A stretch of DNA of 64,000 bases from an uncultured Bacilli bacterium (GTDB lineage: Bacteria > Bacillota_I > Bacilli_A > RFN20 > CAG-826), in assembly GCA_944358895.1 (NCBI GenBank), contig CALVSB010000006.1, forward strand, positions 8,573 to 72,572, written 5' to 3'. A program made the translations under genes and the position numbers. The notes under the pieces were generated by a model. That model searched no databases. It saw only the letters and a program-made list of their open reading frames with translations, and was not told where the DNA came from. Positions 4,026 to 42,294 of this stretch are shown here, piece by piece. Numbering within the stretch: the first letter of the stretch is position 1; each line of letters opens with the position of its first letter.

Positions 4026-4766
4026 TTACTTGACCTTCTTTTCGATCCAGGCGCCGTAATCGGCATCGAGGAGCGAGGCGTGGTAGCACCACATGTTGAG
4101 CTCTTTCGAGAACTTCCTGGTGAAGAACTCCCAGTAGCCTTGCTTGGCGTTGGCCGCGTAGTTCTTGATGTTGTCGAAGTAGAGGCGGTCGATGACGATT
4201 TCTCCGAAGTCGTCTTTTGCGGCTTGCCGGGCCATCTTCGCCGCGTCGAAGAGAGAATCGCCTACATAAGCCAGAGGGGCATCGCCTTCGCCCGTCTTGA
4301 TGACGAGGCATTCGGAGGTCGAGAGGCCGATCCCAATCTCGAAGGTGGCCATGTTCTTCTTGTCGAGGCTCCGCTGGAGCAACTCGTTGAAGGTGTTCAC
4401 GTAAATCGCGTCCTCGAGGAGGGAGACGAGATCTTCCTGCCCCGGGGTGTTGTAGTAGGCGATCATCTTGTCGCCTTCGATCGTGAGGCGGAGAAGCTTC
4501 TTGTTTCCGCGGAGGATGGCCGCGACCTCCCCATAAAAGGCCCGGACGATCCGTGCGACATCAAGCGGCTCCTCTTCCTTGAAAAGAGGGGCAGCGTTCC
4601 GAATGTCGATGACCATGGCGGCCATCCAGCCTTTGACGCCATTCTCCTTCAGGGCCGCTTCCTTGAGGTCGATGGCATTGACGGTGGCAATTTTGGTGGT
4701 GGAAGACAAGATGGCGTCGACTCTCTTTTTGGAGGCCGCGTAAATCTCCTCGTTGGTCATAGGCAC
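4026..4766 (-). CDS. Class III nucleotidyl cyclase-like protein (stand-alone catalytic-type domain)
   Basis: VIDIRNAAPLF, IEGDKMIAYY, IGIGLSTSECLVIKTG and YVGDSLFDAAKMARQ align by eye to the FxDIxGFT, GD, RIGIHxG and GDxVNxAxR blocks of class III cyclases. Both metal Asp are present; the canonical Asn and Arg of the last block are not conserved. Confidence 0.55.
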   Translation of the reverse strand: MPMTNEEIYAASKKRVDAILSSTTKIATVNAIDLKEAALKENGVKGWMAAMVIDIRNAAPLFKEEEPLDVARIVRAFYGEVAAILRGNKKLLRLTIEGDKMIAYYNTPGQEDLVSLLEDAIYVNTFNELLQRSLDKKNMATFEIGIGLSTSECLVIKTGEGDAPLAYVGDSLFDAAKMARQAAKDDFGEIVIDRLYFDNIKNYAANAKQGYWEFFTRKFSKELNMWCYHASLLDADYGAWIEKKVK

Positions 4767-5193
4767 TTCTCCTCTATTTATTTATCCTTATTCTAACGGC
4801 AACTTTTACTTTTCGTTACTATTTCAAGCAAATCGATGACATTTTTTCCGTTTTGTTACATGGTAAAGACAGTTGCGACGGGGAACTGGATGATGGAGAA
4901 AGCGTTTATAAACCATCGGGCAAACTCATTTTGCTAGCCCTCAGGAGGCTTCGCTATAGCTATCACCGGGTACTGTAGACGGTAAGGATAAAACCCATCG
5001 CGAAGCATGGAAAGACGAACGCTTTGATGGTTCGCGGCTCTTTACAAAATAGTTGTCATAAACGGTCGTCCTTCATTGAAATGAGGGATAGTCGCCGTTC
5101 TTCGATTCTGTTCGTCTTTCTCGTATTTTCAGATGATATCGGTTGTTTTTGCGGAATATTTGTGCAAATTCATCGAAATTCACCCAAAGTCTC

Positions 5194-5209
5194 AAAAAAC
5201 GGGGGATTT
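5194..5209 (+). repeat. Direct repeat copy 1: AAAAAA-CG-GGGGATTT
   Basis: 16-mer that recurs 76 nt downstream with only the two central bases different. Confidence 0.6.
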
Positions 5210-5269
5210 TCTATACACTGTTAATGTTTATATCAAGCCAACCTTGAAAATCAGAAATTAAAATCTTTG

Positions 5270-5285
5270 AAAAAATCGGGGATTT
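5270..5285 (+). repeat. Direct repeat copy 2: AAAAAA-TC-GGGGATTT
   Basis: Second copy of the 16-mer, in the AT-rich region upstream of the fibre operon. Confidence 0.6.
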
Positions 5286-5462
5286 GCAAGGATATTGATT
5301 TTAGGCCTCGACAAGGACTTTCTTTTGCTTGTAGAGCGCTACCGACAATGCAAGAATTGTGCCGGGCAGATGACCCAATAGGGAAGCCGAGCTACTCGTC
5401 ATGAGAGCGCCAGCGGCGGCCCGTTTGCCACCATCGTGCCCGAGCATTCAAAGGAGGTTAGC

Positions 5463-6278
5463 ATGAAAAAGCAAACCAAGCTCGAAAAGCGTCGCAAGAC
5501 TGTACTCGGAGCCGTTCTCGGATTCGGTGCGGTTGCGCTCCTCACCACGGCCACGGCAACCTGGATTATCGCGGTCAACAATTCAACGTTCGATGGTGAC
5601 ATTGGCGTGACGGTGGACACGGTTCAAAACAACTCTGTCAAACTTTCAGTTGTAATTGATAATAACGACAAAGGCCTCAATGTAGCGGAGAATGCCTCGA
5701 GCTTCGATCCCGAAGGACTAATCCAATACACGAGCTCGGATGACACTTTGGCCGTCGATGGTGGAAGCATCTCAATTCCGGACTTCAAGATCAAACTGTC
5801 AACAATCACTGTTGAGTATGGTTCGAATTTCTGCGGTGCTGATGAGAAACTCGTCCTTAATCTTTCACTAAAATATGGCGCGGGTTTGAAGAATAATGGT
5901 TCTAATCTTGCCAAGGAAGCTGACGACTTAATTGGAAAGCGCACTGATGACAGCCCCCTTGCTTTCACTGTTGCGTCTACTGGAGAGGGCGAACCCGATT
6001 CATGGACGTATGTGAAACTGGAAACGACTCAAATCGAGTTGAATACCGGCACTGGCGAAACCACCAAGACATCTACCACCGAAGGCAAGACTGTAACTTT
6101 CACTTGGGGTTCGTTCTTCGACAATAAGTCGCCAGCCACCTATTACAACGAGCTATTCCAAGCCGACACGGCTCAAGTTCAAGACGCTGCCAACATCGAA
6201 AGTGAGCTTGCTAATATGAAGAGCAGGCTGGAACAAGGCCTTGTGCTCACCTGTAGCGTTGCTGTTGTTGATGCCTAA
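5463..6278 (+). CDS. Secreted protein with SipW-cognate-type (TasA/camelysin-like) signal peptide
   Basis: Start at ATG 5463 with AAAGGAGG SD. KR-rich N-terminus plus a hydrophobic core ending ATATWIIAV, similar to the GGGTWAAF region of TasA. Paralog of the next gene, sharing a C-terminal FxWGxxFxxxxPxxY block. Confidence 0.5.
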   Translation: MKKQTKLEKRRKTVLGAVLGFGAVALLTTATATWIIAVNNSTFDGDIGVTVDTVQNNSVKLSVVIDNNDKGLNVAENASSFDPEGLIQYTSSDDTLAVDGGSISIPDFKIKLSTITVEYGSNFCGADEKLVLNLSLKYGAGLKNNGSNLAKEADDLIGKRTDDSPLAFTVASTGEGEPDSWTYVKLETTQIELNTGTGETTKTSTTEGKTVTFTWGSFFDNKSPATYYNELFQADTAQVQDAANIESELANMKSRLEQGLVLTCSVAVVDA

Positions 6279-6295
6279 CCTTCTTGGTACAAACT

Positions 6296-7063
6296 ATGAA
6301 AAGTAAAATCAAGGGTAACAAGAAGTTTGCCTATATTCTTCTCGGCGCGGGCGCCATTGCAATGACTGGAATCGCGTTCTCGGCCTGGATTATTACCGGC
6401 ACTATCACTCAAATTGATGTAGCCAATGTTTCTGTGACGGTTGGCGAGGTTAAGGACCAGCGGTTTGTTGCAACCGTACTCGAAAGTGGACGCGATTACG
6501 ATTTGAGTTTTGACTGCGAAGCTGGTGACGTTACCACACCGATAATTGCCGGAGATGGCGCTAAGGAGGATTTGTCTTTTGGCTTCACGGTCACCATCAC
6601 GAATGCTGTTGACACTTCAACCGGAAATCTTTCTACCGCGTTCACGGGGTACACGCTTGAAACGACTTATCCCGCGGACATCAATGACATTGTTTCAACA
6701 AACAAACTCATTGTTCTGCCCATCGATTCAGGCCGCGTTGAAATTGTGCCCGGTGAGATAACGCTTGCTTCATCTGTGAGGTATAACGCTGACGGAACGG
6801 TTAATAACGAGTCTTCGACATGGTCTGTGACTTACTCGGCCGAAGGCTCGACTCTCAAAGCCGTATTCGTGTTTAGTTTCTTGTGGGGCGACTATTTTAA
6901 CGGGCAAAATCCTGGGAAATATCAAGAATCGGAAATCACAATGCCGTCTGTCAGTGATATCGATGACTTGAAGGCTAAACTGAATCTTCTCAAGACCACT
7001 TTTGGAAGCGAAGGCAGTTTGGCTATGAAACTTACTCCTGAAGTTTCTGCCGGCCAAGATTGA
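6296..7063 (+). CDS. Secreted protein with SipW-cognate-type signal peptide (paralog of 5463..6278)
   Basis: N-terminus MKSKIKGNKKFAYILLGAGAIAMTGIAFSAWIITG and C-terminal FLWGDYFNGQNPGKY block. ATG 6296 preferred over TTG 6284. Confidence 0.5.
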   Translation: MKSKIKGNKKFAYILLGAGAIAMTGIAFSAWIITGTITQIDVANVSVTVGEVKDQRFVATVLESGRDYDLSFDCEAGDVTTPIIAGDGAKEDLSFGFTVTITNAVDTSTGNLSTAFTGYTLETTYPADINDIVSTNKLIVLPIDSGRVEIVPGEITLASSVRYNADGTVNNESSTWSVTYSAEGSTLKAVFVFSFLWGDYFNGQNPGKYQESEITMPSVSDIDDLKAKLNLLKTTFGSEGSLAMKLTPEVSAGQD

Positions 7064-7149
7064 GCTATCAGCAGTTTTTGACTGCTTTCAGTTCTGATGA
7101 TTGGCTTTGGCTTTACCGCTTTGCTTAAAATCGTCATAGAGCCATTCAG

Positions 7150-8127
7150 ATGTCCAGCATTGAAATCCTCTCGCTTATCGTGACGATCGTCGCTCTCGTG
7201 AGCCTCTCGTTCGTCTTCACCTTTCTCTTCCGTAACTATTTCCGCGGAATCATCGAAGCGGTGCAAAGCGGGGAAGAAGATGCTGAACTCATTTATGAAG
7301 AAGCGATGGGCAAGCGGGAAAAGACCGTTGCCCAGAAGATTCTCCACTATAGCGGCAAGGCCCTTTCCTACCTCGTCCTCCTTCTCTTGGTCGGGGTTTT
7401 CACCGGATCCCTTGTCTCACGGTTCATGGGGACCGAGATGAGCATAGGGGGCAATATACCCCTTGTCATTGTCTCGGGCTCGATGTCCTACAAAAACGAC
7501 GCCAACCAATATCTATATACAAACCATCTGGACGACCAGTTCCAGACGTACGACATCATCGTGGTCAACCCGACCGCGAGCCCCGACGACATCGAACTCT
7601 ACGACGTCATCGCTTTCTACTCTTCGGAAGGCACGGTCGTCGTTCACCGGGTCGTCGATATCGTCGATACCTCGGAAGGCAAGATGTTCGTCACCCGCGG
7701 GGATGCGAACAAGGCCAGCGACGCGAATGCCCTCTATGGCGACTACCTGCCTTACCAGCAAGTGGTAGGGGAATACCATGGAGTAAGGCTTCCAGCCGTC
7801 GGTGCCTTCGTCCTCTTCCTTCAATCGGGGGCCGGTGTCGTCTGCGTCATCTCCATCGTCTACTGCTTCGCCATCTTCGAGTTCTATCGCCGGAAGATGG
7901 ACCTCGCCATCGAGGAACGGACCGAGAAACTCCTCTCCTTCCTCACCATCGACGAAGCCGACGAGAATGCCGACGTCAACTTCACGGAAGTCCTGACCTA
8001 CAAGGGCAAGGACTATGTCCTCCCCAACGGGGAACCACCAACTTCTAAGGAGCCTGAAGCGGCTCCCTCCGCCGATAAAGGCGACAAAACAAATATCCAA
8101 GCTACATCCAAGGAGGATCAGCAATGA
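7150..8127 (+). CDS. Signal peptidase I, SipW/Sec11 (ER-archaeal) type, with extra N-terminal TM and acidic C-terminal tail
   Basis: Catalytic Ser box VSGSMSY, His box VVHRVV, TRGDANKASD box and a C-terminal TM helix. Confidence 0.8.
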   Translation: MSSIEILSLIVTIVALVSLSFVFTFLFRNYFRGIIEAVQSGEEDAELIYEEAMGKREKTVAQKILHYSGKALSYLVLLLLVGVFTGSLVSRFMGTEMSIGGNIPLVIVSGSMSYKNDANQYLYTNHLDDQFQTYDIIVVNPTASPDDIELYDVIAFYSSEGTVVVHRVVDIVDTSEGKMFVTRGDANKASDANALYGDYLPYQQVVGEYHGVRLPAVGAFVLFLQSGAGVVCVISIVYCFAIFEFYRRKMDLAIEERTEKLLSFLTIDEADENADVNFTEVLTYKGKDYVLPNGEPPTSKEPEAAPSADKGDKTNIQATSKEDQQ

Positions 8128-9932
8128 AAGGGCTCTTCAAACGCGTCGACGGGATCGCGCTTTCCCTCGTCTTCTTCTATTGCCTCATCGTCGGGTTCGT
8201 CGGGCTTTGCCTCGACCCCAATTCGACGATCGTGATGACCTCGAACCCCATCGCCTCCTTGGCGACGGCCTTAGGCTTTGCCAAGATCGAATCCCTTGGT
8301 ATCCCAAGCGGCATCATGCTGGCGATGATCTTGGTCTACACCTTCCTCTTTGCCCTCGCGGTGATCGTCGAAGTGCGTCTGGCCGAGAATGCGGACGAGA
8401 AACCGTATTCGGCCAAGTGGCTTTCCATCATGGCAGCTTCTTTCGTTGTTCTCTATGGCCTTGGGATCGGCATCGGTTCCGTTTCCCACCTGGCCTTCGA
8501 CGACGGGGTGAGCCTCGTCGCCCAGTCCCTCGCCTATTCGGGCGAAGCGATGCTCCTCGGCCTCGTCATTGCCATCGTCGCCTATCTAGCCATCTTCTTC
8601 CTCGTTCTCCTCGTCTATTGCATCGCCGCCAAGAGCAAACAACCGATCGAAGACGAAGTCTCGCCCGAAAGCGAGGAAGCCAAGAAACTCGAGGAACTCG
8701 AAGAGAAAGTCGACGAGGCCCTCGATGCCCACAATGGCGACGTCGCCTCTTCCTTTGCCGCCCACGGAAGCGGCGAAGGAGTCGGAACCGGCACCGGCCC
8801 GAGCAATCCCGACGACTTCTATGCCCTCGACCGGAACCGGGTCTTCCCCTCCATTTCGCGGGTCGATTCCCGGGCCGACCTCGTGGCTGTCAAGGAATTC
8901 AAGGACGACGAGGCCCTCGACCTCCGCACCTTGAGCGACGATTTCCGCGACTTCCTGGCCGGGAAGGAGGGCCTCTATTACGAAAAGACGGCCGTCCGCG
9001 CCTTCATCGCCGGCCTTTCGGCTTCCCGTCTCATCATTCTCCAAGGCCTTTCCGGCACCGGCAAGAGCTCGATAGCCCGTTACTTCTCGACCTTCATCGG
9101 CGAGAAGTCCTTCTTCGTGCCGGTCCAGACCACCTGGCGCGACCGGACCTCGATCCTCGGCTATTGGAACGACTTCAGCAAGACCTACAACGAGACCGAT
9201 TTCCTCGTTCGCCTCTACGAGGCCACTTACCAGTCGCAGGACATCAACGTCATGGTCCTCGACGAAATGAACATCGCCCGGATCGAGTATTACTTCGCCG
9301 ACTTCCTCTCGATCATGGAGTACCCGGTCGACGAACGCTACCTCAAGATCATGAACGTTCCTTACGATTTCGTGACTCCGGAGCATCTCCCCGACGGCAC
9401 CCTCAAGATCCCGGAGACGACCTGGTTCATCGGCACGGCCAACCGCGACGACTCGACCTACACGATCACCGACAAGGTCTATGACCGCTCGATCGTCATC
9501 TCCTTCAACGAGCGGAACGAGCCTTTTGCCGTCAAACGGATACCAGAACCGTATTCGATCTCCTATTCGAAGCTCATGTCTCTCTACGAAGCCGCCCAGA
9601 AAGACGAGGACAAGAAGATGAACAAGGCCGACTGGGCCAAGTTCCGGAACGTCCTCAACCGGGCCTACGAGGATTTCGAGCTCACCTTCGGCAACCGCGT
9701 CTACCACCAGATCGAACTCTTCGTTCCGGTCTTCGTCGCCTGCGGCGGCACCAAGGAAGAAGCCCTCGACTTCATGTTCGCCGAGAAGATCGCCAACAAG
9801 CTCGAAGGGCGCTACGAGGACTTCGTCAAGGATGCCCTCATTTCCCTCCGGGAAGAAATCGACAAAAACTACGGCAAGAACGGCTTCCCGCTCACCCGCG
9901 AGCGCCTCGCCCACTTGCTCCGGAGATTCTAA
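8124..9932 (+). CDS. Polytopic-membrane McrB-type AAA+ (COG1401-like) protein
   Basis: About five hydrophobic helices in the first ~190 aa, then an acidic linker, Walker A GLSGTGKSS, VMVLDEMNIARIEYYFADFLSIME and FIGTANRDDST. The ATG overlaps the peptidase stop (ATGA). Confidence 0.7.
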   Translation: MKGLFKRVDGIALSLVFFYCLIVGFVGLCLDPNSTIVMTSNPIASLATALGFAKIESLGIPSGIMLAMILVYTFLFALAVIVEVRLAENADEKPYSAKWLSIMAASFVVLYGLGIGIGSVSHLAFDDGVSLVAQSLAYSGEAMLLGLVIAIVAYLAIFFLVLLVYCIAAKSKQPIEDEVSPESEEAKKLEELEEKVDEALDAHNGDVASSFAAHGSGEGVGTGTGPSNPDDFYALDRNRVFPSISRVDSRADLVAVKEFKDDEALDLRTLSDDFRDFLAGKEGLYYEKTAVRAFIAGLSASRLIILQGLSGTGKSSIARYFSTFIGEKSFFVPVQTTWRDRTSILGYWNDFSKTYNETDFLVRLYEATYQSQDINVMVLDEMNIARIEYYFADFLSIMEYPVDERYLKIMNVPYDFVTPEHLPDGTLKIPETTWFIGTANRDDSTYTITDKVYDRSIVISFNERNEPFAVKRIPEPYSISYSKLMSLYEAAQKDEDKKMNKADWAKFRNVLNRAYEDFELTFGNRVYHQIELFVPVFVACGGTKEEALDFMFAEKIANKLEGRYEDFVKDALISLREEIDKNYGKNGFPLTRERLAHLLRRF

Positions 9933-9944
9933 TAGGGAGGAGCC

Positions 9945-11255
9945 ATGGAGGGCTTTGAGAGCCGGTTCGAAAAATCCCTAGCCGCCCTCATCGGGAAAAG
10001 GGCCGCCTATTCCTCCTTCAGCGAGGAAAAGCTTTCCTTTACCTACGTCGATCCTTCGCGGAGCGAAATATCCGAGCTCTCTTCCCTCCTCGATACTTTC
10101 ATGGGCATTGCCGGCTCCCCTCACCGCAAAAGCGAGCCCCACGAAATCGTCGAGCGGAGCGAGCTCGCTTCTTCTTTGACCCCCGACGAGTTTAGGAAGA
10201 CCTACCTCGACTCTTCCTTCTGGCGGCAGAAGAAAGATGGTTCCTTCTATCCGGAATACGTTTACGGTAGCGAGTACGACGACAACCTTCTAACCTACGA
10301 GAACAAGGCGGTTTATTTCATCTTCTGCCTCATCAAGGCCCGCCTCGAGGAACTTTCGACCTCGGTCAAAGAAGAAGGGAACTCCCTCGAGAAGCTTTAT
10401 CAGTCGCCTCTCGCCATCTTCCCGGATGAAGGCCCTCTTTATACGGCCGAGAAGCGGGGCAAAAGCGTCGCCGCCTACCTCCTCAAGAAGAAAGAGGACA
10501 GCTCCGGCGAACTTCTCCTCAAGGCTCTTAGCAAGGCCAAGCGCCTTCTTTCCTCCCAGTTTGCCCGGACGCTCATGAAGGCCAACCACGAAGTGATCCT
10601 GCCCCTCCAGCCGACGAACATCCTGATCCACGATTCCCGTTACAACCGCCTTTATCGTTACTACCTTTCCCATCTCAGCAAGGAAGGCAAAGGACGCCAC
10701 GATTCACCCTATGTCTATCTGGCCTACCGGCTTCTCCAGGAAATGACGAAGGCCGGCTACCGTTTGGCCCAGGAGCCCAATTTCAAATACAAAGACGGAA
10801 CCTTCACCATCACGGCCTTTACCTTCAGCCTCGACGGGTTTCTTTATCACTGCAAGATCGACGAAGACGTCCTTCGGATCGAGATTCTCTACCGCGGAGC
10901 CGTCTACCGGCGGGAAGTCTACCTCTACGACACCTTCCTTCCGACGGCCGATAACCGCGAAGTCCTCGCCCATCATTACGTCGTCTGCTTGAAGAATCTT
11001 TCCTCATCTTACGACGGAATCCTCGAGGTCGATCCTCTCAATAAAGAAGCGGTGTTCCCGCGCCTCTTCGCGGCCCTCTCCCTCGTCCTTCCCCTCGACG
11101 GGAAAGAACTCGACCATTGCCCCGTCTGCGGCTCCTCGGCCCTCGTTTCCTCCGCCAAGAAAGAGTTCCTTTGCCCCAAATGCGAATCGCTTACGGCCCT
11201 CCTCGGGGGCCGGGTCGATCCGGCGATCTGGATCGCTTCGATCAGGGGGAGATAG
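9945..11255 (+). CDS. Zinc-ribbon protein, possible McrC-like partner of the AAA+ protein
   Basis: GGGAGGAG SD, 12 nt after the AAA+ gene. LTYENKAVYF block reminiscent of the ExN motif region of McrC/DUF2357-type partners. C-terminal CPVC-x14-CPKC. No obvious PD-(D/E)xK motif by eye. Confidence 0.45.
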   Translation: MEGFESRFEKSLAALIGKRAAYSSFSEEKLSFTYVDPSRSEISELSSLLDTFMGIAGSPHRKSEPHEIVERSELASSLTPDEFRKTYLDSSFWRQKKDGSFYPEYVYGSEYDDNLLTYENKAVYFIFCLIKARLEELSTSVKEEGNSLEKLYQSPLAIFPDEGPLYTAEKRGKSVAAYLLKKKEDSSGELLLKALSKAKRLLSSQFARTLMKANHEVILPLQPTNILIHDSRYNRLYRYYLSHLSKEGKGRHDSPYVYLAYRLLQEMTKAGYRLAQEPNFKYKDGTFTITAFTFSLDGFLYHCKIDEDVLRIEILYRGAVYRREVYLYDTFLPTADNREVLAHHYVVCLKNLSSSYDGILEVDPLNKEAVFPRLFAALSLVLPLDGKELDHCPVCGSSALVSSAKKEFLCPKCESLTALLGGRVDPAIWIASIRGR

Positions 11256-11257
11256 AC

Positions 11258-12043
11258 ATGAAGATCAAGAAATCCCTCGAAATCGACGTCGACAAGATTG
11301 CGAACGACCTTTCGCAGAATGCCGTCTCCATCGTCGATGTCCATAAATCCTACGGAGACCACGAGGTCCTCAAGGGCGAGAACATCGAAGTCCGCCGCGG
11401 CGAGATTTTCGGGTTGCTTGGCAAAAACGGGGTCGGCAAGTCGACGACCATCGATTGCCTCATCGGGGCCAAGGATTTCGACCAAGGCGAGATCAAGATC
11501 TTCGGCCTTCCGATCGACGAATATCCCCTCGAGGTGAAAAGCCTTTATGGGTATGTGCCGTCCGAGCCGCTTCTCTACGAGCAGATGACCGGCTACGAGT
11601 ACCTTCAGTTCGTGGCCTCAGCCTACGGCCTCAGCCAAGAGGCCTTCGACAAGAACCTCGCCTTCCTCGACGGGGCCTTCCAGCTCGGGGAGGAAGCCCT
11701 TTCCCGCCCGATCGGCGGCTATTCGCACGGCATGAAGCAGAAGGAGGGGCTCATTGCCTCCCTTATCCACAACCCCAAGCTCTGGATTCTCGACGAGCCG
11801 ACGGTCGGCCTCGACGTCATGGCCTACGAAACCCTCCTCGACATGATGAAGCGCTACCGCGACAACGGGAATACCATCGTCTTGACCTCCCACAACATCG
11901 ACCTCATCGCCGACGTGACCGACCGGGTGGCCATCCTGAACGAAGGGAAGGTCGCGACCCTCATCGACTTCCACAAGGAGCCGCAGAAGCGGAAGGACCT
12001 GAAACTCGTCTTCTTCAAGGTCTACGGGGCCAAACTCTCATGA
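11258..12043 (+). CDS. ABC transporter ATP-binding protein
   Basis: Walker A GKNGVGKST, degenerate signature YSHGMKQK, Walker B LWILDEPTVGLD. Start ATG 11258 with GGGGGAG SD, 2 nt after the preceding stop; the track ORF start 11117 is an in-frame extension overlapping the previous gene. Confidence 0.9.
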   Translation: MKIKKSLEIDVDKIANDLSQNAVSIVDVHKSYGDHEVLKGENIEVRRGEIFGLLGKNGVGKSTTIDCLIGAKDFDQGEIKIFGLPIDEYPLEVKSLYGYVPSEPLLYEQMTGYEYLQFVASAYGLSQEAFDKNLAFLDGAFQLGEEALSRPIGGYSHGMKQKEGLIASLIHNPKLWILDEPTVGLDVMAYETLLDMMKRYRDNGNTIVLTSHNIDLIADVTDRVAILNEGKVATLIDFHKEPQKRKDLKLVFFKVYGAKLS

Positions 12044-13656
12044 GTCTTCATATCTTCATCAACGAGCTGAAGGGACTCCTCCCCAAGGGGAGCCTTCTTT
12101 CGCGCGTCTTGAAGATCGCTCTCCTACTTGTCGCCATTGCCTGTTTCCTCGGGCTCGAGGTTTATATCTACCTGGCTCTCGACGGCCAGCTCAAGGACTT
12201 CTCAAGCTTCGGCTCGGGCGATTTCCTGCTTCTCTTCCTTTTCGTCTATTTCTTCCTCTCGGTCCTCGCTTCCTTGCCTTTGGCCGACCGTTGCCTTTAC
12301 CGGAAGCTCGACGAGGAAATCCTCTCGCCCCTCCCGGTGAGCGACGACGACGTCATTCTCGGCAAGGGCCTCTATCTTTATGTCCGCCTCGTCGTCTCGA
12401 CCCTTTTCCTCGCGACGCCCCTTCTCATTGCTTACGGGACGACGTCGAACATGATGCCCCAATACTACGTGTTGGCCGTCCTTTATCCGTTTGTCGTTTC
12501 CTTTGTCGCGATCGGCCTTCTTCTGGCCCTTTTGCCTCTTTATCACCGGCTGGCCCGTTTCATGAAGGGCAAGTTCCTCCTTCAGCTCATCCTCGGGGCC
12601 GGGGTGACGGTCGCTCTCTGTTTCCTATACCAGTACGTCCTCGAGCTCTTCCTGAACATCGTCCAGGGGAGCCGCCTCGATTCCCTCTTCTCGGCCTCGT
12701 TCCTGAGCGGCCTCCACGAAGCCGCTCCGTGGTTCATCCCGGTCAGCAACTACTTTGCCCTCATGAGCGGTGGCGACAAGGTCATCAGTAATCTCCTCTA
12801 CCTCCTCGGGGCCATCCTTCTCATGGCGTTTCTTGGAATCTATCTCCTCACTTACCTCTATCGTTCCAACAAGGAACCGATGGCCGAAGAGAAGAAGAAA
12901 AAGAGAGAAAAGAAAGCCGCTTTGCGGGTGCTTTCGCCCTTCAAGGCCTTGCTCAAGAAAGAATTCATCCTCCTCTTCCGCAACGGAAGCTATCTCTTTT
13001 CCTTCTCCTCGCTCCTCTTCATGCAGCCTTTCCTTTCCTATGTCGTCATCGCTTCCCTCTCGAGGCTTCTCTATAGCAACCTTGCCATCTTCCTCAAGTA
13101 CTTCTCGGAACTTCCCAACGGCGTTTCCCTCCTCTTGCTCCTCCTTTTTGCCTCCATCGTTTCCTCGGGGGCAGCCGACGGCATCACCCGCGAGGAAAAG
13201 GGACGCCTCTTCCTCAAGACCTCGCCCCTCTCCCCTTTCAAGATGACCTTGGCGAAGCTTCTTTTGCCCCTTGGGGTTTCCCTTTTCTCGTTTTATCTCA
13301 GCGCGATCGTCCTCGTGGCGACCGGCGAGATCGGCGTTCCTCTTTTCTTCGTCGCCCTCGTGAGCGGCACCTTCCTTGTGGCCTCGGTCTCGAGCTACGG
13401 CCTTCTTGGGGATCTCGCTTCCTATTCGGCTAGGGTCAAGGGCAAAGGCTTCTTCGGATCGCTTACGGCTATTGTGTCGATCGCCTTCCCTTTGCTCATT
13501 GCCCTCGTCCATTTTGCCCTCATGTTCTATAGCGGCCTTCCTTCTTTTGTTATCTACCTCATCGAGGTGGCCTTCAGCTTCCTCCTTCTCCTTCCGCTTC
13601 CCTTCGTCCCGCGGCGGCTCGACCGCCTGTATCTTGAAATGGAGGCCGGCGTATGA
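12040..13656 (+). CDS. Multi-pass membrane protein, putative ABC exporter permease
   Basis: Start MSLHIFINELKG at ATG 12040, overlapping the ATPase stop (ATGA). Ten or more hydrophobic segments. The part of the track ORF upstream of 12040 is an Arg/Pro-rich artefact. Confidence 0.75.
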   Translation: MSLHIFINELKGLLPKGSLLSRVLKIALLLVAIACFLGLEVYIYLALDGQLKDFSSFGSGDFLLLFLFVYFFLSVLASLPLADRCLYRKLDEEILSPLPVSDDDVILGKGLYLYVRLVVSTLFLATPLLIAYGTTSNMMPQYYVLAVLYPFVVSFVAIGLLLALLPLYHRLARFMKGKFLLQLILGAGVTVALCFLYQYVLELFLNIVQGSRLDSLFSASFLSGLHEAAPWFIPVSNYFALMSGGDKVISNLLYLLGAILLMAFLGIYLLTYLYRSNKEPMAEEKKKKREKKAALRVLSPFKALLKKEFILLFRNGSYLFSFSSLLFMQPFLSYVVIASLSRLLYSNLAIFLKYFSELPNGVSLLLLLLFASIVSSGAADGITREEKGRLFLKTSPLSPFKMTLAKLLLPLGVSLFSFYLSAIVLVATGEIGVPLFFVALVSGTFLVASVSSYGLLGDLASYSARVKGKGFFGSLTAIVSIAFPLLIALVHFALMFYSGLPSFVIYLIEVAFSFLLLLPLPFVPRRLDRLYLEMEAGV

Positions 13657-16046
13657 AGAAAACCCTGCCCGTCCTCTTGCTGGCCCCCTTCGCCGTCGCG
13701 ATCCTCACTTTCGTGTCGATCACCCCGATCCGGAACCTCATCGCGGTCGATATCGACGGCATCTCCTGGGACTACCTCGACAGCGAAGGCTTCAAGGTCG
13801 GGGAATCCTACGAGCTCGAGGCTACCCCGATCTATGATGAGAACTTCACCTTGGCCGACGGGAACGACCTCGTCTGGACGAGCGCGGACGACGAAGTTGC
13901 TGCCATTAAAAGAAGCGGGGATGCCTTCTACCTCGATGCCATCCAGGAAGGCAGCTGCCGGATCACTTGCTCCAACGAGAAAGGGAGCGTCTCGCGGAAT
14001 TTCCTCGCGACCGTCTACGAAGACGGGGCCATCACGATTGTCGATGCCGGGACCCCGGCCTCGGGCGATAGCTTCGAAGACGTCCGGACCTACGGCCAGT
14101 TCGACTATTCCTACGAGGGCGGGACCGCGACGAAGGTCCAGGCGGCCATCACTTTGTCCTTTGGGATCTATAGCGACTATGACGACGACGAGGTCGTGCT
14201 CAAGGAAGCCTCGAGCAACCTTTCCTACGCGGACTCGACCTTGACCGTCAAGGCGCCGGGCGCCTCCTATGCGACCTTCGCCCTCAAGAAGATGCCCTTC
14301 GTTACCGCGACCTATTCCTTCGACGTCCTTGAAGGCGCGGTGAACGTCAAAAGCTACGACGACCTCATGCAGGCGACCAATCTTTCGGAAGAGGGGGAAA
14401 GGATCTGCCTCCAGCGGAATCTTCTTTCCCTCAAGTCAACCTACAAGAGCGATGGCGACGGCGGCTACGTCGACGAGTATTTGAACGCGAATACCCGCCT
14501 TTTCGGGCGTTACGACTTTGGGCGGGAGACGACCTCCTTCGACATCTATGCTTTCGACACCACCTATCCCCACGACTACCTCGACGATTACTTTGCCCAC
14601 AACCCCCCGACGCCAGGGCAAGAGGATTACCTCAAGGTGAGGACCGGCATCCATGTCCAAAAGGATTTCATCGGGAACGGCTTTGCCATCTCTTGCCAGG
14701 AGCTTTGCTACACCTACCACGGCGGCTACCTCGGGAACGGCCGCTGGAGCCCCTCGAGCGACGGGAGTAACGTCAGCGATTACTTCGAAGGGCCGCTTCC
14801 CTTCGTCTTCCTTGGGCCCTACGACCTCCAGGTCATCACTGCCTACGGGCAGGACAACTCGGCGATGTACGTCGAAGGGAACGACATCGAGATCTCTGAT
14901 CTTAAGCTGATGGCCGTCGACAACGTCGACGACTTGAACCTCCTCGAGTACGTCGGCTCGACGATGGACGTCCTCGGGGCAAACGTCACCGTGTCCGACA
15001 CCTACCTCCGGAACGGGCGGACGGCCCTCCGGGTCTACTCCTCCCCGAACTTCCTCCTCGACAATTGCTACCTCAACAACGCCCGCGAGTTCCTCCTTAA
15101 GGTCGGGAGCAACGAAGTGAGCCGCCCCGATCCTTCGACCCGGGTCGACGCCAGTTACGGCGGGGCACTCGCCCACGGAAGCCTCGAAGAGAATTTCGCC
15201 AGCGGCGGCGGGGCTGATCAGATTCTCGATGCCGCCGTCCGGAGTGGAGCCGACATCGCTTCGGCGATGGAAGCGATGAACGCCATCCAGTCCTCGCTCG
15301 ACGCCTCCGAGCCGCTCGATGCCTGGGACATGACGGTGAGGAATACCTATTTCGAGACGAGCGGCCTCTTCTCCATCGCCTTCGAAAGCGTCTTCAACGG
15401 CGGCTATCTCTATAGCGGCGTCCCTTCCTTCGTCTCCGAGCTCCTCGACACCTTCATGGGCATGATGAACCTCAAGTCGGTCCCGCCCGATCGCATCGGC
15501 GGTGTCTCCCGCCCGGTGAACATGACCATCGAGGGCGATACCCGCTTCTACGACTACAAAGACATCTCATCGATCGACGCTAGCTGCCTCATCTACGAGC
15601 AGATCTCGGCCATCCTGGCCGGAATCGGGAGCGACAGCGGGGACCTCACTTTCCCGATCGACAGCTATTTCCCGATCAAGAACCTGCTTCAGACCGCGGC
15701 CGAGCGGGTCGGGTCCAACTACCGGAACGAGGACGGCAACTTCGTCCTCGGGGCCATTGCTTTCTACGGCGGGGGCCTTAACCTATCGACAGTCGATGTC
15801 TCGGGGATGGACGTCTCCCCTCTCGGAGGAGAGCTGAGCGTCGATTACGCAACGGCTTGCCTTTCCGGCATCGGCCTCGCCGAAGGAAACGAGCTCTCGG
15901 CGTATTTGGCCCGCTGCGTGCCCCTGGCCGCCGGGACCAACCCCTTCCGCTTCGTCCTGAGCGGCGACCTCAGGCAAGTCGAGAAGCCTTACCTATTCGG
16001 CGAAGTGGCCGATATCAATGCGCTCAAGGCGCGAGGAGGAAACTAA
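13653..16046 (+). CDS. Large exported/anchored protein with Big_2-like Ig domain and probable beta-helix region
   Basis: N-terminal hydrophobic signal/anchor MKKTLPVLLLAPFAVAILTF. LVWTSADDEVAAIKRSGDAFYLDAIQEGSCRITCS matches Big_2 style. Repetitive N/D/G-rich turns are suggestive of a right-handed beta-helix. Start overlaps the previous stop (ATGA). Confidence 0.7.
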   Translation: MKKTLPVLLLAPFAVAILTFVSITPIRNLIAVDIDGISWDYLDSEGFKVGESYELEATPIYDENFTLADGNDLVWTSADDEVAAIKRSGDAFYLDAIQEGSCRITCSNEKGSVSRNFLATVYEDGAITIVDAGTPASGDSFEDVRTYGQFDYSYEGGTATKVQAAITLSFGIYSDYDDDEVVLKEASSNLSYADSTLTVKAPGASYATFALKKMPFVTATYSFDVLEGAVNVKSYDDLMQATNLSEEGERICLQRNLLSLKSTYKSDGDGGYVDEYLNANTRLFGRYDFGRETTSFDIYAFDTTYPHDYLDDYFAHNPPTPGQEDYLKVRTGIHVQKDFIGNGFAISCQELCYTYHGGYLGNGRWSPSSDGSNVSDYFEGPLPFVFLGPYDLQVITAYGQDNSAMYVEGNDIEISDLKLMAVDNVDDLNLLEYVGSTMDVLGANVTVSDTYLRNGRTALRVYSSPNFLLDNCYLNNAREFLLKVGSNEVSRPDPSTRVDASYGGALAHGSLEENFASGGGADQILDAAVRSGADIASAMEAMNAIQSSLDASEPLDAWDMTVRNTYFETSGLFSIAFESVFNGGYLYSGVPSFVSELLDTFMGMMNLKSVPPDRIGGVSRPVNMTIEGDTRFYDYKDISSIDASCLIYEQISAILAGIGSDSGDLTFPIDSYFPIKNLLQTAAERVGSNYRNEDGNFVLGAIAFYGGGLNLSTVDVSGMDVSPLGGELSVDYATACLSGIGLAEGNELSAYLARCVPLAAGTNPFRFVLSGDLRQVEKPYLFGEVADINALKARGGN

Positions 16047-16047
16047 G

Positions 16048-17151
16048 ATGAAAAGAAGGAACGTCCTATTGGCCCTGGCGGCCTTTGCCCTCGGGGCCGT
16101 CTCGCTCACGAGCTGCGGCTTCTTCGCCGGGAGCGGCACCTATTCGATCGACGAGGTGACGACCTCGACGACGGCCACCGGCGACACGGTGGTGACCATT
16201 TCCTATACGGACACCAGGCTGCCGGCGACGACCTTCACCATCCCCAAGGGCGAGACCGGGGTCGGGATCGCTTCGGCGACGGCGAGCGTCGACGAGGAAA
16301 AGAAGACGGTTACCGTCACCATCACTTACACCGACGACCGGGAGCCGACCGTCTATACCTATCCGATCGTCGAAGGGAACGGGATCGAAAGCGTGGCCCT
16401 CACCTACCAGGAAGGCAGCACGACCCAAGTCTATTCCTTCCACTTCGTCTACACGAACGGCGAGATCAGCGACGAAATCATTCTCCCAAAGGGCAACGGC
16501 ATCGCCTCGATTACGGCGACGGCCAACGAGGAGGACGGCTCCACCGACGTCAAAATCACGATGGACGACGGGAAAGAGGTGACTTTCAACATCCCGAAGG
16601 GCGAGAAAGGCGATCCGGGCGAGGACGGCTTCTCCCCGGAAATCGTCGGGATCAGCCTCGGGGCCGACGGCAAATGGTATCTCTACGTCACCCGGGCCGA
16701 TGGCGGAACCGACCAGAAGCCGATCGACGGGATGCCGACCTGGATCGTCGCCCAGGGCAACCCCAACGACAATCCGACCTATGACGACTACGCGACTGGC
16801 TACATCTACGTCGACACCTTGACGAGAACGATTTATTACAAGACGGCCGATAGCGGCTGGGTCATCTGGGTCGACCTCGGGCAGAAGGCGACCTACACGG
16901 TGACCTTCCACGCCGGCGAGGGCACGATCCCGCCCTCGGAGCTCGTCGGCTTCACCATCGGGGAAGGCAATACCTACAGCCTTACCGTGAAAGAAGGGTC
17001 GACGATCGACCTTCCGACCCCGACCGCTCCCGCCAGTCTTTCCTTTGAAGGATGGTACACGTCGAGCGAGCTCTCCGACCCCAACGTCGGCAAGATGACT
17101 GACCTCACCCCGGTTACGAGAAGCCTCGACCTTTACGCGATTTACGCGTGA
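16048..17151 (+). CDS. Lipoprotein with ~40-aa tandem modules, a collagen-like GEKGDPGEDG tract and a C-terminal Listeria-Bacteroides (Flg_new) repeat
   Basis: Lipobox LTSC. Four repeats ending IPKGE/LPKGN/VEGN followed by GI(A/E)S. C-terminal YTVTFHAGEG...FEGWYT...LYAIY repeat signature. Start 1 nt after the preceding stop. Confidence 0.85.
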   Translation: MKRRNVLLALAAFALGAVSLTSCGFFAGSGTYSIDEVTTSTTATGDTVVTISYTDTRLPATTFTIPKGETGVGIASATASVDEEKKTVTVTITYTDDREPTVYTYPIVEGNGIESVALTYQEGSTTQVYSFHFVYTNGEISDEIILPKGNGIASITATANEEDGSTDVKITMDDGKEVTFNIPKGEKGDPGEDGFSPEIVGISLGADGKWYLYVTRADGGTDQKPIDGMPTWIVAQGNPNDNPTYDDYATGYIYVDTLTRTIYYKTADSGWVIWVDLGQKATYTVTFHAGEGTIPPSELVGFTIGEGNTYSLTVKEGSTIDLPTPTAPASLSFEGWYTSSELSDPNVGKMTDLTPVTRSLDLYAIYA

Positions 17152-17166
17152 GGTCGGGTCTTTCTT

Positions 17167-17174
17167 TGTATAAT
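17167..17174 (+). promoter_or_regulatory. Extended -10 box TGTATAAT, 9 nt upstream of ATG 17184 (leaderless-type arrangement)
   Basis: TGTATAAT-GGCCCTAGC-ATG with no Shine-Dalgarno in between. Confidence 0.45.
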
Positions 17175-17183
17175 GGCCCTAGC

Positions 17184-18314
17184 ATGAAGAAAGCTCTTTT
17201 GATTTTGACGCTCGAAAGCCCGGTTGCCGTGAGCAATGCCGCCCTTTACGGAGCCATCCTCGAAGCCCGGAAATCTTCCTTTATCGAGGGGATTTACGGG
17301 GCAAAACGCGGTTTGGAAGGCCTTTTGAACGACGACATCGTCGACCTTGAGAAGGAAGAAAAGGAAGAAATCGAGAAGCTTCCCTTTCTCCCGGGCTCGG
17401 TTCTCGGAACCTCCTCGATCACCCTTTCCTACAACGACTGCACCGGCGAGATGGCAGCCATTAAAAAGGTCATCGACCGCCTGAATGTCGGCTACTTCCT
17501 CCTCCTCGGGGGCCTCAAGACGGCCGAGCTGGCTCTTTCCTTATCGACGTCCTTCCTCCTCGGGGGAATCGAGGCCTCGGTCCTTTCCCTGCCGCTCAGC
17601 GAGGAAAACGCGGTTCCGATGAGCGACCACTCCCTTGGCTATCCCTCGGCCGCGATGCGCCTCCTTTCGAGCGTCCGCTCGGTCGTCGACGTCGCGCACT
17701 CCATTTCTACGAAGAAGATCTACCTCCTCTCCGTCGAAGGCACGTATAGCGGCTATCTTTCTTCCTCGGCTTTCCTTCTGCCCGAAGCGGCCCGTCCTGA
17801 CCTCATCTACCCCCTCGAAAGCGAAGCCTCGGGCGAAGAAGTCCTCTCCGCCGTCAAGGAAACGCTTGCTTCGAAAGGGCAGGCCATCGTCTTGGCCGAC
17901 CGCGGCTTCCTCGACCGGGTCCATCTCGATGATCTTCCCTTCGAGGCCCCTCTCGAGACGATTCCCCTTTCCTATTTCCACCGGGTCGGCCCGGAGGGCC
18001 TATCCTCCCTCGACGTCTGGGAGGCCGAGTCGGCCGCCCGGCTGGCCGTCCTTTCCTTCAAGAACGGGGAAAGCGGCAAGATGGCCTCGATCGTCCGGGA
18101 AAAGGATGCCCCTTACGAATCGAGCCTGACCCTTGTCCCGCTCGGGCAAGCGGTGGGCACGAGGCGGCCTTTCCCCAAGGAGTGGATCCTTTCCCCGAGC
18201 GAAGGAAGCGACGAGCTCCGCGCCTATCTTTCGCCCCTCGTCTCGGGCGAAGCCAGCGCCCCGTCGACCCTTCCGCTCAAGGCGGCCCCCAACCTTCTTT
18301 ATAAGAAGGTCTAG
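17184..18314 (+). CDS. 6-phosphofructokinase-family protein with degenerate catalytic motifs
   Basis: Collinear with PfkA, but SGGDAPGMN is LESPVAVSN, GGDGS is GGLKT, TIDND is SEENA and MGR is EGT. Confidence 0.7.
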   Translation: MKKALLILTLESPVAVSNAALYGAILEARKSSFIEGIYGAKRGLEGLLNDDIVDLEKEEKEEIEKLPFLPGSVLGTSSITLSYNDCTGEMAAIKKVIDRLNVGYFLLLGGLKTAELALSLSTSFLLGGIEASVLSLPLSEENAVPMSDHSLGYPSAAMRLLSSVRSVVDVAHSISTKKIYLLSVEGTYSGYLSSSAFLLPEAARPDLIYPLESEASGEEVLSAVKETLASKGQAIVLADRGFLDRVHLDDLPFEAPLETIPLSYFHRVGPEGLSSLDVWEAESAARLAVLSFKNGESGKMASIVREKDAPYESSLTLVPLGQAVGTRRPFPKEWILSPSEGSDELRAYLSPLVSGEASAPSTLPLKAAPNLLYKKV

Positions 18315-18350
18315 TTTGCCTATAATGGCAACGCAAAGGAGCAAAGAAAC

Positions 18351-19055
18351 ATGTTACTAGTACTCTGCCGGCACGGGCAAAGCGAGTGGAACCTCAAGAA
18401 CCTGTTCACTGGCTGGACCGACGTCGACCTCTCCGAAAAAGGCGTCGAGGAAGCTAGGGAAGCGGGCAAGGCCCTCAAGGCCAACGGCTTCAGCTTCGAT
18501 GTCGCCTACAGCTCGGTCCTCAAGCGGGCCAACCGCACGATGGATCTCATTCTCGAGGAACTCGGGGAAGAAAACATCGAGAAGCACTATTCCTGGCGGC
18601 TCAACGAGCGCCACTACGGCGCCCTCCAGGGCCTCAACAAGGCCGATAGTGCCAAGAAGTGGGGCGACGAGCAAGTCCACGTCTGGCGCCGCAGCGCCAA
18701 CGTACCGCCGCCTGCCCTCACGAAGGACGATCCGCGGTTCCCGGGCAACGACCCGAAGTACCAAGCCCTCGTCAAGAGCGGCGAGATGAGCGAAGAAGAC
18801 CTCCCGCTCACCGAGTGCCTCGTCGACACCGCCAAGCGCGTCAAGCCGTACTTCGTCGGCACCATCCTCCCGGCTCTCGAAAGCGGGAAGAAGGTTCTCA
18901 TCGCCGCCCACGGCAACAGCCTCCGGGCCCTCGTCATGGAACTCGAGCACCTCACGGCCGACGAAATCGTCTCCGTCGAAATCCCGACCGGGAAGCCTCT
19001 CGTCTACGCACTCGACGACAAGACCCTCGCGGTCAAGAAGAAGTACTATCTCTAA
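18351..19055 (+). CDS. gpmA: 2,3-bisphosphoglycerate-dependent phosphoglycerate mutase
   Basis: [29 protein letters not shown] with the catalytic RHG motif, full-length family match, AAGGAG SD. Confidence 0.95.
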
Positions 19056-19094: not shown

Positions 19095-19241
19095 TCGTCG
19101 GTCTCCTGTTCGAAAGGCCATAAGTAGAAAGCCCGGAAGGCAAGATTCCATGCGGACAATGGCTTTCTGCGCGCGATTTTCGGTTTGCGAACGCCCTTTC
19201 TTTGCCCTAATCTAGGCTTGCATAAACAAGGAGGCTTTCTC

Positions 19242-20294: not shown

Positions 20295-20394
20295 CCTTAA
20301 CCCCTTGCCCTTCTTCGGAGGGGCTTTTCTTTTAGGCCTCTTCCTCCGCTTTCATTCTTTGTTAAACTAAAACTACCTTCAGGAGGTAAGAATC

Positions 20395-42217: not shown

Positions 42218-42294
42218 GGGCCTTTAGCTCAGCTGGTTAGAGCGTGCGCTTGATAAGCGCAAGGTCGATGGTTCGAGCCCATTAAGGCCCACCA
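42218..42294 (+). tRNA. tRNA-Ile (anticodon GAT), CCA encoded
   Basis: Full cloverleaf folded by hand: acceptor GGGCCTT/AAGGCCC, D arm GCTC..GAGC, anticodon arm TGCGC-TTGATAA-GCGCA, T arm GATGG-TTCGAGC-CCATT. Confidence 0.95.

Follow-up and report, generated by a model that had tools for sequence, protein, structure and literature searches.

A major branch of McrB proteins is defined by an NxD motif whose next residue is usually E or a second D (PMC11090510), and a large clade of such NxD GTPases has been described as fused to an FtsB-like transmembrane (TM)/coiled-coil domain and linked to "pilus assembly factors" of the signal peptidase family; the clade was named CoCoPALM and its description deferred (Bell et al. 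2024, PMC11090510). In our literature search, the term was found only in the two versions of that paper, whose supplement makes no mention of it. From another direction, the export of the SipW-dependent BsaA fiber of Clostridium perfringens has been shown to be functionally tied to type IV pilus proteins (PMC11580942). Here, we analyzed a stretch of 64,000 nucleotides from an uncultured Bacilli bacterium (contig CALVSB010000006.1, positions 8,573 to 72,572; hereafter the window, to which unprefixed coordinates refer), in which nine consecutive plus-strand open reading frames (ORFs) at 5463-17151, labeled g1 to g9, make up an operon of about 12 kb where a SipW-type signal peptidase adjoins an McrB-type GTPase. 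We see roughly even chances that these nine genes are a single operon, passed on vertically in reduced-genome gut Bacilli, which would build and maintain a variable cell-surface protein structure, most likely a filament. More tentatively, and with doubts of our own, we propose that an McrBC-derived membrane GTPase ring, together with a nuclease-free partner, may be the energy-transducing core of an unrecognized surface-filament machine, with SipW-processed, hypervariable subunits of a new fold and an outer platform of ABC and beta-helix proteins. The features on which the argument draws are as follows (nt, nucleotides; aa, amino acids).

4767..5462, plus strand: upstream non-coding region of 696 nt, likely promoter/leader, with AAAGGAGG 5' of the g1 ATG
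5463..6278, plus strand: g1, 271 aa, predicted secreted subunit, member of the family here called F12, without a Pfam, NCBIfam or PDB match
5583..7149, plus strand: hypervariable cassette (mature g1, g2 and the g2-g3 spacer), from nucleotide comparison of strains
6296..7063, plus strand: g2, 255 aa, distant g1 paralog with the same N- and C-terminal motifs
7064..7149, plus strand: g2-g3 spacer of 86 nt, with a 7-bp hairpin at about 7070-7087 and a U-poor tail
7150..8127, plus strand: g3, 325 aa, SipW/archaeal-type signal peptidase I with three TM segments (TIGR02228)
8124..9932, plus strand: g4, 602 aa, McrB-type AAA+ GTPase with four N-terminal TM helices (AAA_5, NCBIfam McrB, hhalign)
9945..11255, plus strand: g5, 436 aa, cytoplasmic McrC-like partner without TM segment (DUF2357 matches of orthologs, zinc ribbon)
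11258..12043, plus strand: g6, 261 aa, ABC transporter ATPase of the DrrA/ABC-2 type (ABC_tran, 2.4e-21)
12040..13656, plus strand: g7, 538 aa, permease, about 12 TM segments (Pfam 12TM_1, PF09847, in orthologs)
13653..16046, plus strand: g8, 797 aa, N-terminal TM anchor and large ectodomain
16048..17151, plus strand: g9, 367 aa, lipoprotein (lipobox LTSC, short repeats of the PKGxxG type, C-terminal Flg_new domain)

From the letters alone, an earlier note on this DNA had described these nine ORFs as one translationally coupled unit, and recomputation reproduced exactly both the ORFs and all eight of its junction figures: from g1/g2 to g8/g9, the gaps are 17, 86, -4, 12, 2, -4, -4 and 1 nt, the three negative values being ATGA start/stop overlaps (g3/g4, g6/g7 and g7/g8). 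Searched against a protein collection, g4 returned more than 5,000 clusters of full-length relatives, and a scan of a one-genome-per-species collection with the same protein found at least 545 stretches encoding a relative; 80 of these loci were kept with 10-kb flanks, and their gene order was read by tblastn of every window protein. The carriers are all uncultured gut or rumen Bacilli, labeled Mollicutes, Acholeplasmatales, Anaeroplasma, Ca. Onthovivens, Ca. Enteromonas and similar. Every locus that contains all seven of the genes from g3 to g9 (58/58) has g3-g4-g5-g6-g7-g8-g9 in the same order and on the same strand; most of the remaining 22 are cut by contig ends, and only one (L046) clearly lacks the rest of the block. 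The identity of g4 across these loci descends from 92% to 38%, and the identities of the other genes covary with it (Spearman 0.54-0.82). A further 80 metagenome loci display, for the most part, the same layout. Upstream of g3, an iterated hidden Markov model (HMM) of g1/g2 finds 2-8 F12 paralogs per locus, often with one more after g9.

Might the F12 and SipW genes, the McrBC-like pair and the ABC genes with g8 and g9 be independent modules, brought together by chance or history and sharing no function? Some loci speak in that sense: g4-g5 occurs without the others in L046, L142, L148, L150, L163 and L169, and in two rearranged loci (L156:1-12137; L159:1-7963) g9 lies directly 3' of g5, L156 carrying g6-g7 further downstream, after two unrelated ORFs. 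Yet the core is collinear in every complete species locus even at 38% g4 identity, start/stop overlaps span the module borders g3/g4 and g7/g8, and only 2 nt separate g5 from g6. In addition, the genes flanking the block in the window (pfk, gpmA and two upstream genes) are present in the three closest relatives only, and because the order of the block is conserved while the flanking genes differ, the juxtaposition is not one of chance. We therefore hold a mere assemblage of unrelated modules to be very improbable. That the nine genes act as one functional unit, as the earlier note proposed, is supported by the same contrast between a conserved order and differing flanks, and an insertion of the AAA+ pair or of the ABC genes in this strain alone, which it had envisaged as the contrary case, is set aside by the collinear core. 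Besides the core, the four loci given below and about 20 others carry a recurrent accessory gene for a secreted protein of about 850-1000 aa without a Pfam match; some species have it inserted between g3 and g4, others upstream or downstream of the block, and the window has no homolog of it.

L015:7326-9980; L022:7311-9980; L026:7444-9960; L006:6849-9956: recurrent accessory gene

The products of g1 and g2 bear the features that one would expect of secreted subunits. The g1 protein has a K/R-rich N-terminus, a hydrophobic segment of about 20 aa ending in TATA|TW and a C-terminal motif F-x-W-G-S-F-F...SP..YYN; g1 and g2 are 23% identical in the family alignment, the BLASTP similarity being significant over the first 85 residues only. 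Throughout F12, the K/R-rich start is followed by a hydrophobic segment of about 20 residues ending in G-F-(A/S)-(T/A/S)-W-(I/V)-(I/V), with the signal end G-F-A/S-x-W near residue 30 in 163 of 214 members; the mature part contains a conserved alternating strand V.V..V, and the C-terminus a block F-x-W-G-S-x-F...N-P..Y-Y-N, followed by a helix and a last strand. By the -3/-1 rule, cleavage is likely to take place at G-F-A|x-W, and the conserved end of the signal peptide together with the adjacency of the genes leads us to infer that g1 and g2 are substrates of the SipW-type peptidase encoded by g3. The earlier note had called them "TasA-like," a label that did not survive: none of 30 F12 members has a Pfam match, the TasA family included, at E<=0.5, and neither NCBIfam nor a PDB profile search returned any match for g1/g2. 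An AlphaFold2 model built from 43 sequences (pLDDT 70, by the predicted local distance difference test; confident from residue 110, poor over the first 105 residues) suggests a compact alpha/beta domain without a pilin-like fold, whose best Foldseek match in the PDB has an E of 0.13, with TasA absent among the 50 best-ranked PDB matches listed, and which has no match in BFVD. These Pfam, NCBIfam, PDB-profile and Foldseek searches rule out recognizable TasA homology, so that "TasA-like" would best be understood as an analogy (a dedicated SipW, a motif-bearing signal peptide, several paralogs); F12 is a new protein family. The match of the F12 HMM on g9 was discarded as a signal-peptide/composition artefact (alignment accuracy 0.45).

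These subunits vary strongly between closely related strains, as seen when the window is compared with the closest species genome (L002, g4 92% identical) and with two contigs of the same species (L089 and L090). Against L002, nucleotide similarity amounts to 81-88% on both sides and is lost at 5582-7150, except over the codons of the g2 signal peptide (6295-6401). Within the species, the flanks are 93-95% identical at the nucleotide level and the proteins 98-99% (g4) and 88-98% (g3) identical, whereas the alleles of g1 and g2 are only 40-45% and 32-37% identical at the amino acid level; inside the first 35-60 codons of g1 the similarity breaks off, to return exactly at the start codon of g3. 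In line with this, the cluster at 90% identity comprises 4 members for g1 versus 48-80 for g3-g9, and the GC content at third codon positions is 0.53 in g1 and 0.49 in g2 versus 0.72-0.85 in g3-g9 and in the neighboring glycolysis genes. Conserved ends around a replaced middle are the typical pattern of pilins, flagellins and other exposed antigens. The same pattern in F12 therefore favors, and argues for, surface exposure and the exchange of alleles by recombination, and such a strain-specific subunit cassette would be a likely target of host immunoglobulin A or phages, as well as a handle for strain typing. As regards base composition more broadly, GC content is 42-48% at 1-2500 and 4500-7100, and 55-62% both in the 3-4.5 kb between them and in the 7.5-24 kb profiled after, for a mean of 56% over the whole window; the low-GC stretch at 4500-7100 coincides with the variable cassette and its upstream region.

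A surface structure of this kind need not be a filament. F12 proteins might instead be attached to, or arranged as a two-dimensional array on, wall-reduced or wall-less cells, as a non-filamentous surface layer or as anchored variable antigens, and the ABC genes with g8 and g9 would then export or remodel a glycan or lipid partner. The compact alpha/beta model agrees with this, as do the carrier lineages (RFN20, RF39 and relatives of Acholeplasmatales), since their orders include many peptidoglycan-deficient species (PMC10868615), the resemblance of g8 to carbohydrate-active beta-helix proteins, and the enlarged relatives of the GTPase pair at polysaccharide loci presented below. On the other hand, 2-8 paralogs per locus with conserved termini and a variable middle are the usual pattern of major and minor filament subunits, and this GTPase pair accompanies bona fide pilus operons as well as a collagen-like fiber protein. 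We regard such a coat as a genuine, if doubtful, possibility.

The peptidase gene that follows the cassette belongs with the machinery. The g3 protein exceeds the cutoff of TIGR02228 (57.8 bits, cutoff 51.85) and scores 69.5 bits against the SipW equivalog model, below its cutoff of 190, and hence is a relative rather than an ortholog of Bacillus SipW; beyond the classical SipW layout, it has one more TM segment at the N-terminus, with a cytoplasmic loop, and about 85 aa of C-terminal tail. Its catalytic motifs SGSM, VHRV and GDAN are present, and SGSM, HR and GDxN are retained in 68-79 of 79 orthologs, from which g3 appears catalytically intact. Its stop codon overlaps the start of g4 in the window, and the two genes are adjacent in all 58 complete loci. 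A literature search on SipW in Mollicutes-like lineages turned up no paper linking the two.

The peptidase gene is thereby joined to a GTPase of an unusual layout: over its N-terminal 170 residues, g4 has four TM helices, followed by an E/K-rich and then a G/S-rich linker and by the AAA+ domain, with Walker A GLSGTGKS, Walker B VLDEMN and the signature GTANRDD of the NxD-D/E type. Among 82 orthologs, 78 have GTANKD[DE] or GTANRDD, and N440 and D442 are invariant. Aligned with Escherichia coli McrB by hhalign (probability 87.7%, E 3.4e-6), g4 is matched from Walker A to the NTAD signature, and it scores 22.1 bits against AAA_5 and 2.3e-5 against NCBIfam McrB; its profile has no match among PDB sequences at E<=0.01. 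The GTPase domain is 33-40% identical to the CnuB GTPases of CoCoNuT systems, the matched operons being plasmid-borne and encoding PP2C, a kinase, a helicase, CnuB and a DUF2357 protein, and 29-30% identical to type I-B-like CoCoNuT systems of Bacillus and Lactiplantibacillus; the PADLOC candidate PDC-M26A matches g4 at 2.9e-38. No DNA-binding family was matched on g4, and five N-terminal regions yielded no FtsB/DivIC match in Pfam at E<=0.1.

DUF2357 is the N-terminal domain of McrC, and it is this domain that relates g5 to McrC. Its N-terminal, DUF2357-type region carries the motifs RSE, D..(L/F)W(K/R), PEYV and YEN, and the family is matched in 12 of 29 orthologs (top score 39.8 bits, cutoff 23.3, E 3.9e-10, residues ~50-150). 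The window protein itself falls below the threshold and has zinc ribbons as its only Pfam matches, while aligning throughout. Beyond residue 233, nothing is invariant except the four cysteines that make up a C-terminal CxxC...CxxC zinc ribbon, and in the 29 orthologs no conserved acidic/lysine motif of a PD-(D/E)xK nuclease was found outside DUF2357 and the cysteines, nor any nuclease Pfam match. A full McrC was rejected for g5: hhalign against E. coli McrC was negative (probability 0.2%), and a PDB profile search matched the zinc ribbon only. A word-based homolog search gave only five relatives, and the AlphaFold2 model from a six-sequence alignment has a pLDDT of 52.6, low-confidence long helices and meaningless Foldseek matches. 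Given the DUF2357 matches of the orthologs, the lack of a conserved PD-(D/E)xK motif and the negative comparison with McrC, g5 is most simply viewed as an McrC-like partner without a recognizable nuclease. The earlier note had rightly seen a membrane McrB-like AAA+ protein with a zinc-ribbon partner, and had missed that the latter is McrC-like and apparently nuclease-free.

This ancestry raises the question of defense. The pair could be a nuclease-free, CoCoNuT-like McrBC system that senses or blocks phage entry at surface receptors, the rest of the operon making the receptor, which would account for closest GTPase-domain relatives lying in plasmid defense islands, for the PADLOC match on g4, for the movement of the pair among four kinds of surface-polymer locus, including pilus operons with their own ATPase, and for the hypervariability of the adjacent F12 genes, as expected of a receptor arms race. 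Such a system would, however, have neither a nuclease nor another effector, g5 being devoid of conserved catalytic residues, and none of the 29 g5 orthologs matches a PADLOC model. Moreover, the presence of the pair, its order and its coupling to a peptidase gene are kept, by vertical descent, in hundreds of small-genome species, whereas defense systems are usually patchy, and the block is flanked in the window by glycolysis genes instead of a defense island. On balance, we judge a defense function improbable.

The pair also occurs at other loci, which differ in their neighbors. One of them (L046, 1-19700) has g4-g5 without the rest of the block, near a T2SSE ATPase and six large pilin-like proteins with near-identical type IV pilin leaders; in another (L163, 1-9500), the pair directly follows a complete type IV pilus operon comprising two N_methyl pilins, an A24 prepilin peptidase, T2SSF and T2SSE; in a third (L169, 190-11130), a pilin-like gene lies upstream of it. 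None of these three has SipW, F12 or ABC genes beside the pair. Elsewhere (L148:6968-12035, L142:1874-6966 and L149), the pair directly follows a membrane protein of 631-641 aa with collagen triple-helix repeats (PF01391, 2.8e-9). Four further loci (L165-L168; L165:7456-16510) have an enlarged pair, with a g4-like protein of 800-870 aa and a g5-like protein of 1047-1190 aa in which DUF2357 is accompanied by an inserted GNAT acetyltransferase domain; on one side of it are gatA/gatB-like and epimerase-like genes, as judged from N-terminal sequences only, and on the other a Wzy_C-like membrane protein. The neighbors at these loci showed no homology to F12, g3 or g6-g9; the L046 pilins were considered as homologs of F12, g8 or g9 and none was found, and the L046 protein alone, when used to scan metagenomes, retrieved nothing. 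What the loci of the pair have in common appears to be an extracellular polymer, not DNA. The surface or envelope role advanced in the earlier note gains support from this recurrence of the pair, from the hypervariable subunits and from the export signals on g1, g2, g8 and g9.

The pilus loci could also evoke the uptake of DNA or another polymer: a surface fiber would capture DNA, and the membrane McrB-derived ring with its zinc-ribbon partner would pull it in. McrB is by ancestry a nucleic-acid-dependent translocase, the zinc ribbon of g5 is invariant and the associated type IV pili are competence-like. Nevertheless, the conserved block encodes neither a DNA-binding domain nor a nuclease nor a ComEC/ComEA-like protein, and the associations with collagen-like and polysaccharide loci do not fit; being purely speculative, this idea receives very little credence from us.

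The remaining genes encode an ABC module and two exported proteins. The Pfam family PF09847 on g7 orthologs comes from precomputed matches; the window g7 has no Pfam match itself, and a literature search on 12TM_1 gave no relevant paper. The ectodomain of g8 has an Ig-like stretch near residues 60-150, by weak resemblance, and a beta-helix-like central part, Beta_helix matching 3 of 28 orthologs (best E 3.3e-5), while its profile retrieved only noise from the PDB (nanobodies; a polygalacturonase at E 0.26). The Flg_new domain of g9 is the Listeria-Bacteroides repeat. A NosDFYL-like module, in which a NosD-family beta-helix protein goes with an ABC-2 transporter and a lipoprotein, was rejected, as g8 and 27 orthologs have no NosD match and the likeness is architectural only. 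Of the contents listed in the earlier note, the SipW-type peptidase, the McrB-like AAA+ protein, the zinc-ribbon partner, the ABC ATPase, the permease and the lipoprotein were confirmed, "TasA-like" was not, and "giant" surface proteins was an overstatement for products of 797 aa (g8) and 367 aa (g9).

From these sequence features, homologies, synteny, cassette variability and recurrent associations, we infer how cleavage, polymerization, ring formation and coupling may be accomplished by a GTPase-driven filament machine. F12 precursors would enter the membrane via Sec through their K/R-rich, hydrophobic N-termini and be cut by g3 at G-F-(A/S)|x-W, as the -3/-1 rule, the conservation of the motif and the gene adjacency suggest. 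The N-terminal strand of the mature protein and the C-terminal FxWGSxF...NP..YYN block could then provide contacts between subunits or between subunit and machine, leaving the middle part exposed and free to diversify, in keeping with the conservation pattern and the replacement of the cassette from strain to strain. By homology, g4 would assemble into an McrB-like ring, each protomer being anchored in the membrane by its four TM helices, and on this ring g5 would dock via DUF2357, as McrC does on McrB, and control GTP hydrolysis; without a DNA-binding domain and a nuclease, the pair might thus serve as a GTP-driven switch or motor coupled to the assembly of an extracellular polymer. Finally, by synteny only, the g6 ATPase, the g7 permease, g8 and g9 may serve this same structure as its ATP-driven platform or exporter on the extracytoplasmic side.

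Several observations weigh against this proposal of a filament machine powered by the GTPase pair. The type IV pilus locus L163 has a full PilB/PilC/PilD set beside the pair, and with this set adjacent, the pair cannot on its own drive assembly in type IV pilus loci, which favors a regulatory or guarding role for it. The nearest relatives of g4 are defense systems. F12 has no recognizable pilin, TasA or Ig-pilin fold (best Foldseek E 0.13, pLDDT 70), and in the absence of such a filament fold from a moderately confident model, its polymerization is a proposal only; a non-filamentous coat or an anchored antigen would, by that model, fit F12 equally well. It is through synteny only that the ABC module is assigned a role in the surface structure. 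Lastly, five loci (L103-L105, L116 and L146) have the full g3-g9 core and no F12 gene upstream of g3 that the HMM detects, although such genes may be located elsewhere or have diverged beyond its reach.

Turning to expression, the 696-nt region upstream of g1, preceded by a gene on the opposite strand, includes a sigma-70-like site at 5267-5296 and is 88-93% identical among same-species strains at the nucleotide level; an Rfam search of the window found no riboswitch or leader RNA there. Shine-Dalgarno-like sequences lie 5' of g1, g4, g5, g6, g8 and g9. As the earlier note had stated, no terminator was recognized inside the operon: the consensus matches within the block are weak and all located within ORFs, the first convincing plus-strand terminator being at 20307-20324. 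Between 4000 and 22000, terminator-like consensus matches number 38 versus 21.8 +/- 5.1 in shuffles, most of them weak hairpins in T-rich sequence that encodes membrane proteins. An attenuator in the g2/g3 gap was set aside, as the fold z-score of the hairpin against shuffles (-1.67) is not significant; that this hairpin could attenuate transcription between the subunit and machinery genes is speculative. Transcription of g1-g9 as one mRNA is plausible on these signals.

Downstream, the longest ORF of a pfk-like gene (17148-18314) starts at a GTG overlapping the g9 stop, while the Pfam alignment makes ATG 17184 the likely start, and with the resulting gap of 32 nt, read-through from g9 into pfk is possible. 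Its product scores 169 bits against the subfamily model of pyrophosphate-dependent phosphofructokinases (cutoff 273), which makes it a divergent phosphofructokinase. Just 5' of gpmA (18351-19055) is the region's best sigma-70-like match (18298-18326, TTTATA-17-TATAAT, 10/12), and it suggests an internal promoter downstream of the operon. Two adjacent lipoprotein genes (19239-20294 and 20395-21333), weak paralogs with 24% identity over 205 aa (E 0.002), are separated by the terminator at 20307-20324, and a convergent terminator lies at 21377-21351. Three tRNA genes (42218-42291, 42425-42496 and 47577-47648) are the sole Rfam matches in the window.

The carriers, from RFN20, RF39 and relatives of Acholeplasmatales, are abundant, uncultured gut bacteria with small genomes, whose surface is essentially uncharted, and an operon of about 12 kb kept intact in such small genomes must matter to them. 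If the GTPase-driven filament machine were real, a major uncultured gut lineage would universally carry a system separate from the type IV, sortase, chaperone-usher and TasA kinds, and a restriction motor would clearly have been exapted for envelope biogenesis. For the McrBC field, the locus points to a widely conserved, nuclease-free "restriction" GTPase rewired to the membrane and to extracellular polymers, which makes the CoCoPALM idea testable. In addition, at least three protein families without current annotation (F12, g5 and g8) are defined.

Compared with known systems, the operon shares with canonical McrBC and CoCoNuT the AAA+ GTPase core, its Walker A/B motifs and Nx(x)D signature and the DUF2357 partner, with the zinc ribbon of g5 occurring also in several CnuC proteins; in contrast, four TM helices replace the nucleic-acid-binding N-terminal domain, no PD-(D/E)xK or HEPN nuclease is encoded, and the operon lies outside defense islands, housekeeping-like across the whole lineage. 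With tapA-sipW-tasA and the sipW-bsaA-bsaB-bsaC operon of C. perfringens, it has in common a dedicated SipW-type peptidase beside at least two secreted paralogs with a family-specific motif at the end of the signal peptide. It differs in that, by the tests run, its subunits are not homologs of TasA/camelysin (Peptidase_M73), that g3 has an extra TM segment and cytoplasmic extensions, and that the tapA-sipW-tasA and bsa operons are without the GTPase pair, the ABC transporter and g8/g9. Type IV and competence pseudopilus systems likewise combine subunit paralogs of conserved N-terminus and variable body with a leader peptidase, a membrane platform and an NTPase ring; unlike them, the operon of the window has no N-methylation motif, A24 prepilin peptidase or PilB/PilC, features that stand next to g4-g5 in full in L163 and in part in L046, and as a type I (Ser/His) enzyme, g3 should cut after the hydrophobic segment, not before it. 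In this regard, the tie between BsaA and type IV pilus proteins (PMC11580942) may be taken as an experimental precedent for cross-talk between SipW fibers and type IV pili, echoing by analogy the pilus-locus variants found here.

Likeness is greatest with CoCoPALM, which the operon resembles in its NxD GTPase, membrane-anchored, with an adjacent DUF2357 partner lacking an active nuclease, in the adjoining signal peptidase gene and in a presumed link to the assembly of surface filaments. The published systems have an FtsB-like single TM segment plus coiled coil, with coiled coils on both proteins, whereas g4 has a four-TM domain, and the paper mentions neither F12-type subunits, the ABC/12TM_1 module, the beta-helix protein and the lipoprotein nor this lineage. 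The four-TM domain without FtsB/DivIC match and the extra components are why we file the operon as a probable variant of, or sister to, CoCoPALM, with candidate membership. The earlier note correctly placed it beyond the tapA-sipW-tasA layout and credited it with NTP-driven parts of its own (the ABC ATPase and the McrB-type GTPase), overlooking that CoCoPALM had already been named (PMC11090510). The link between McrBC and a signal peptidase had been named in passing in 2024, and what appears to be new here is the set of protein families, the hypervariable subunit cassette and the modular GTPase pair.

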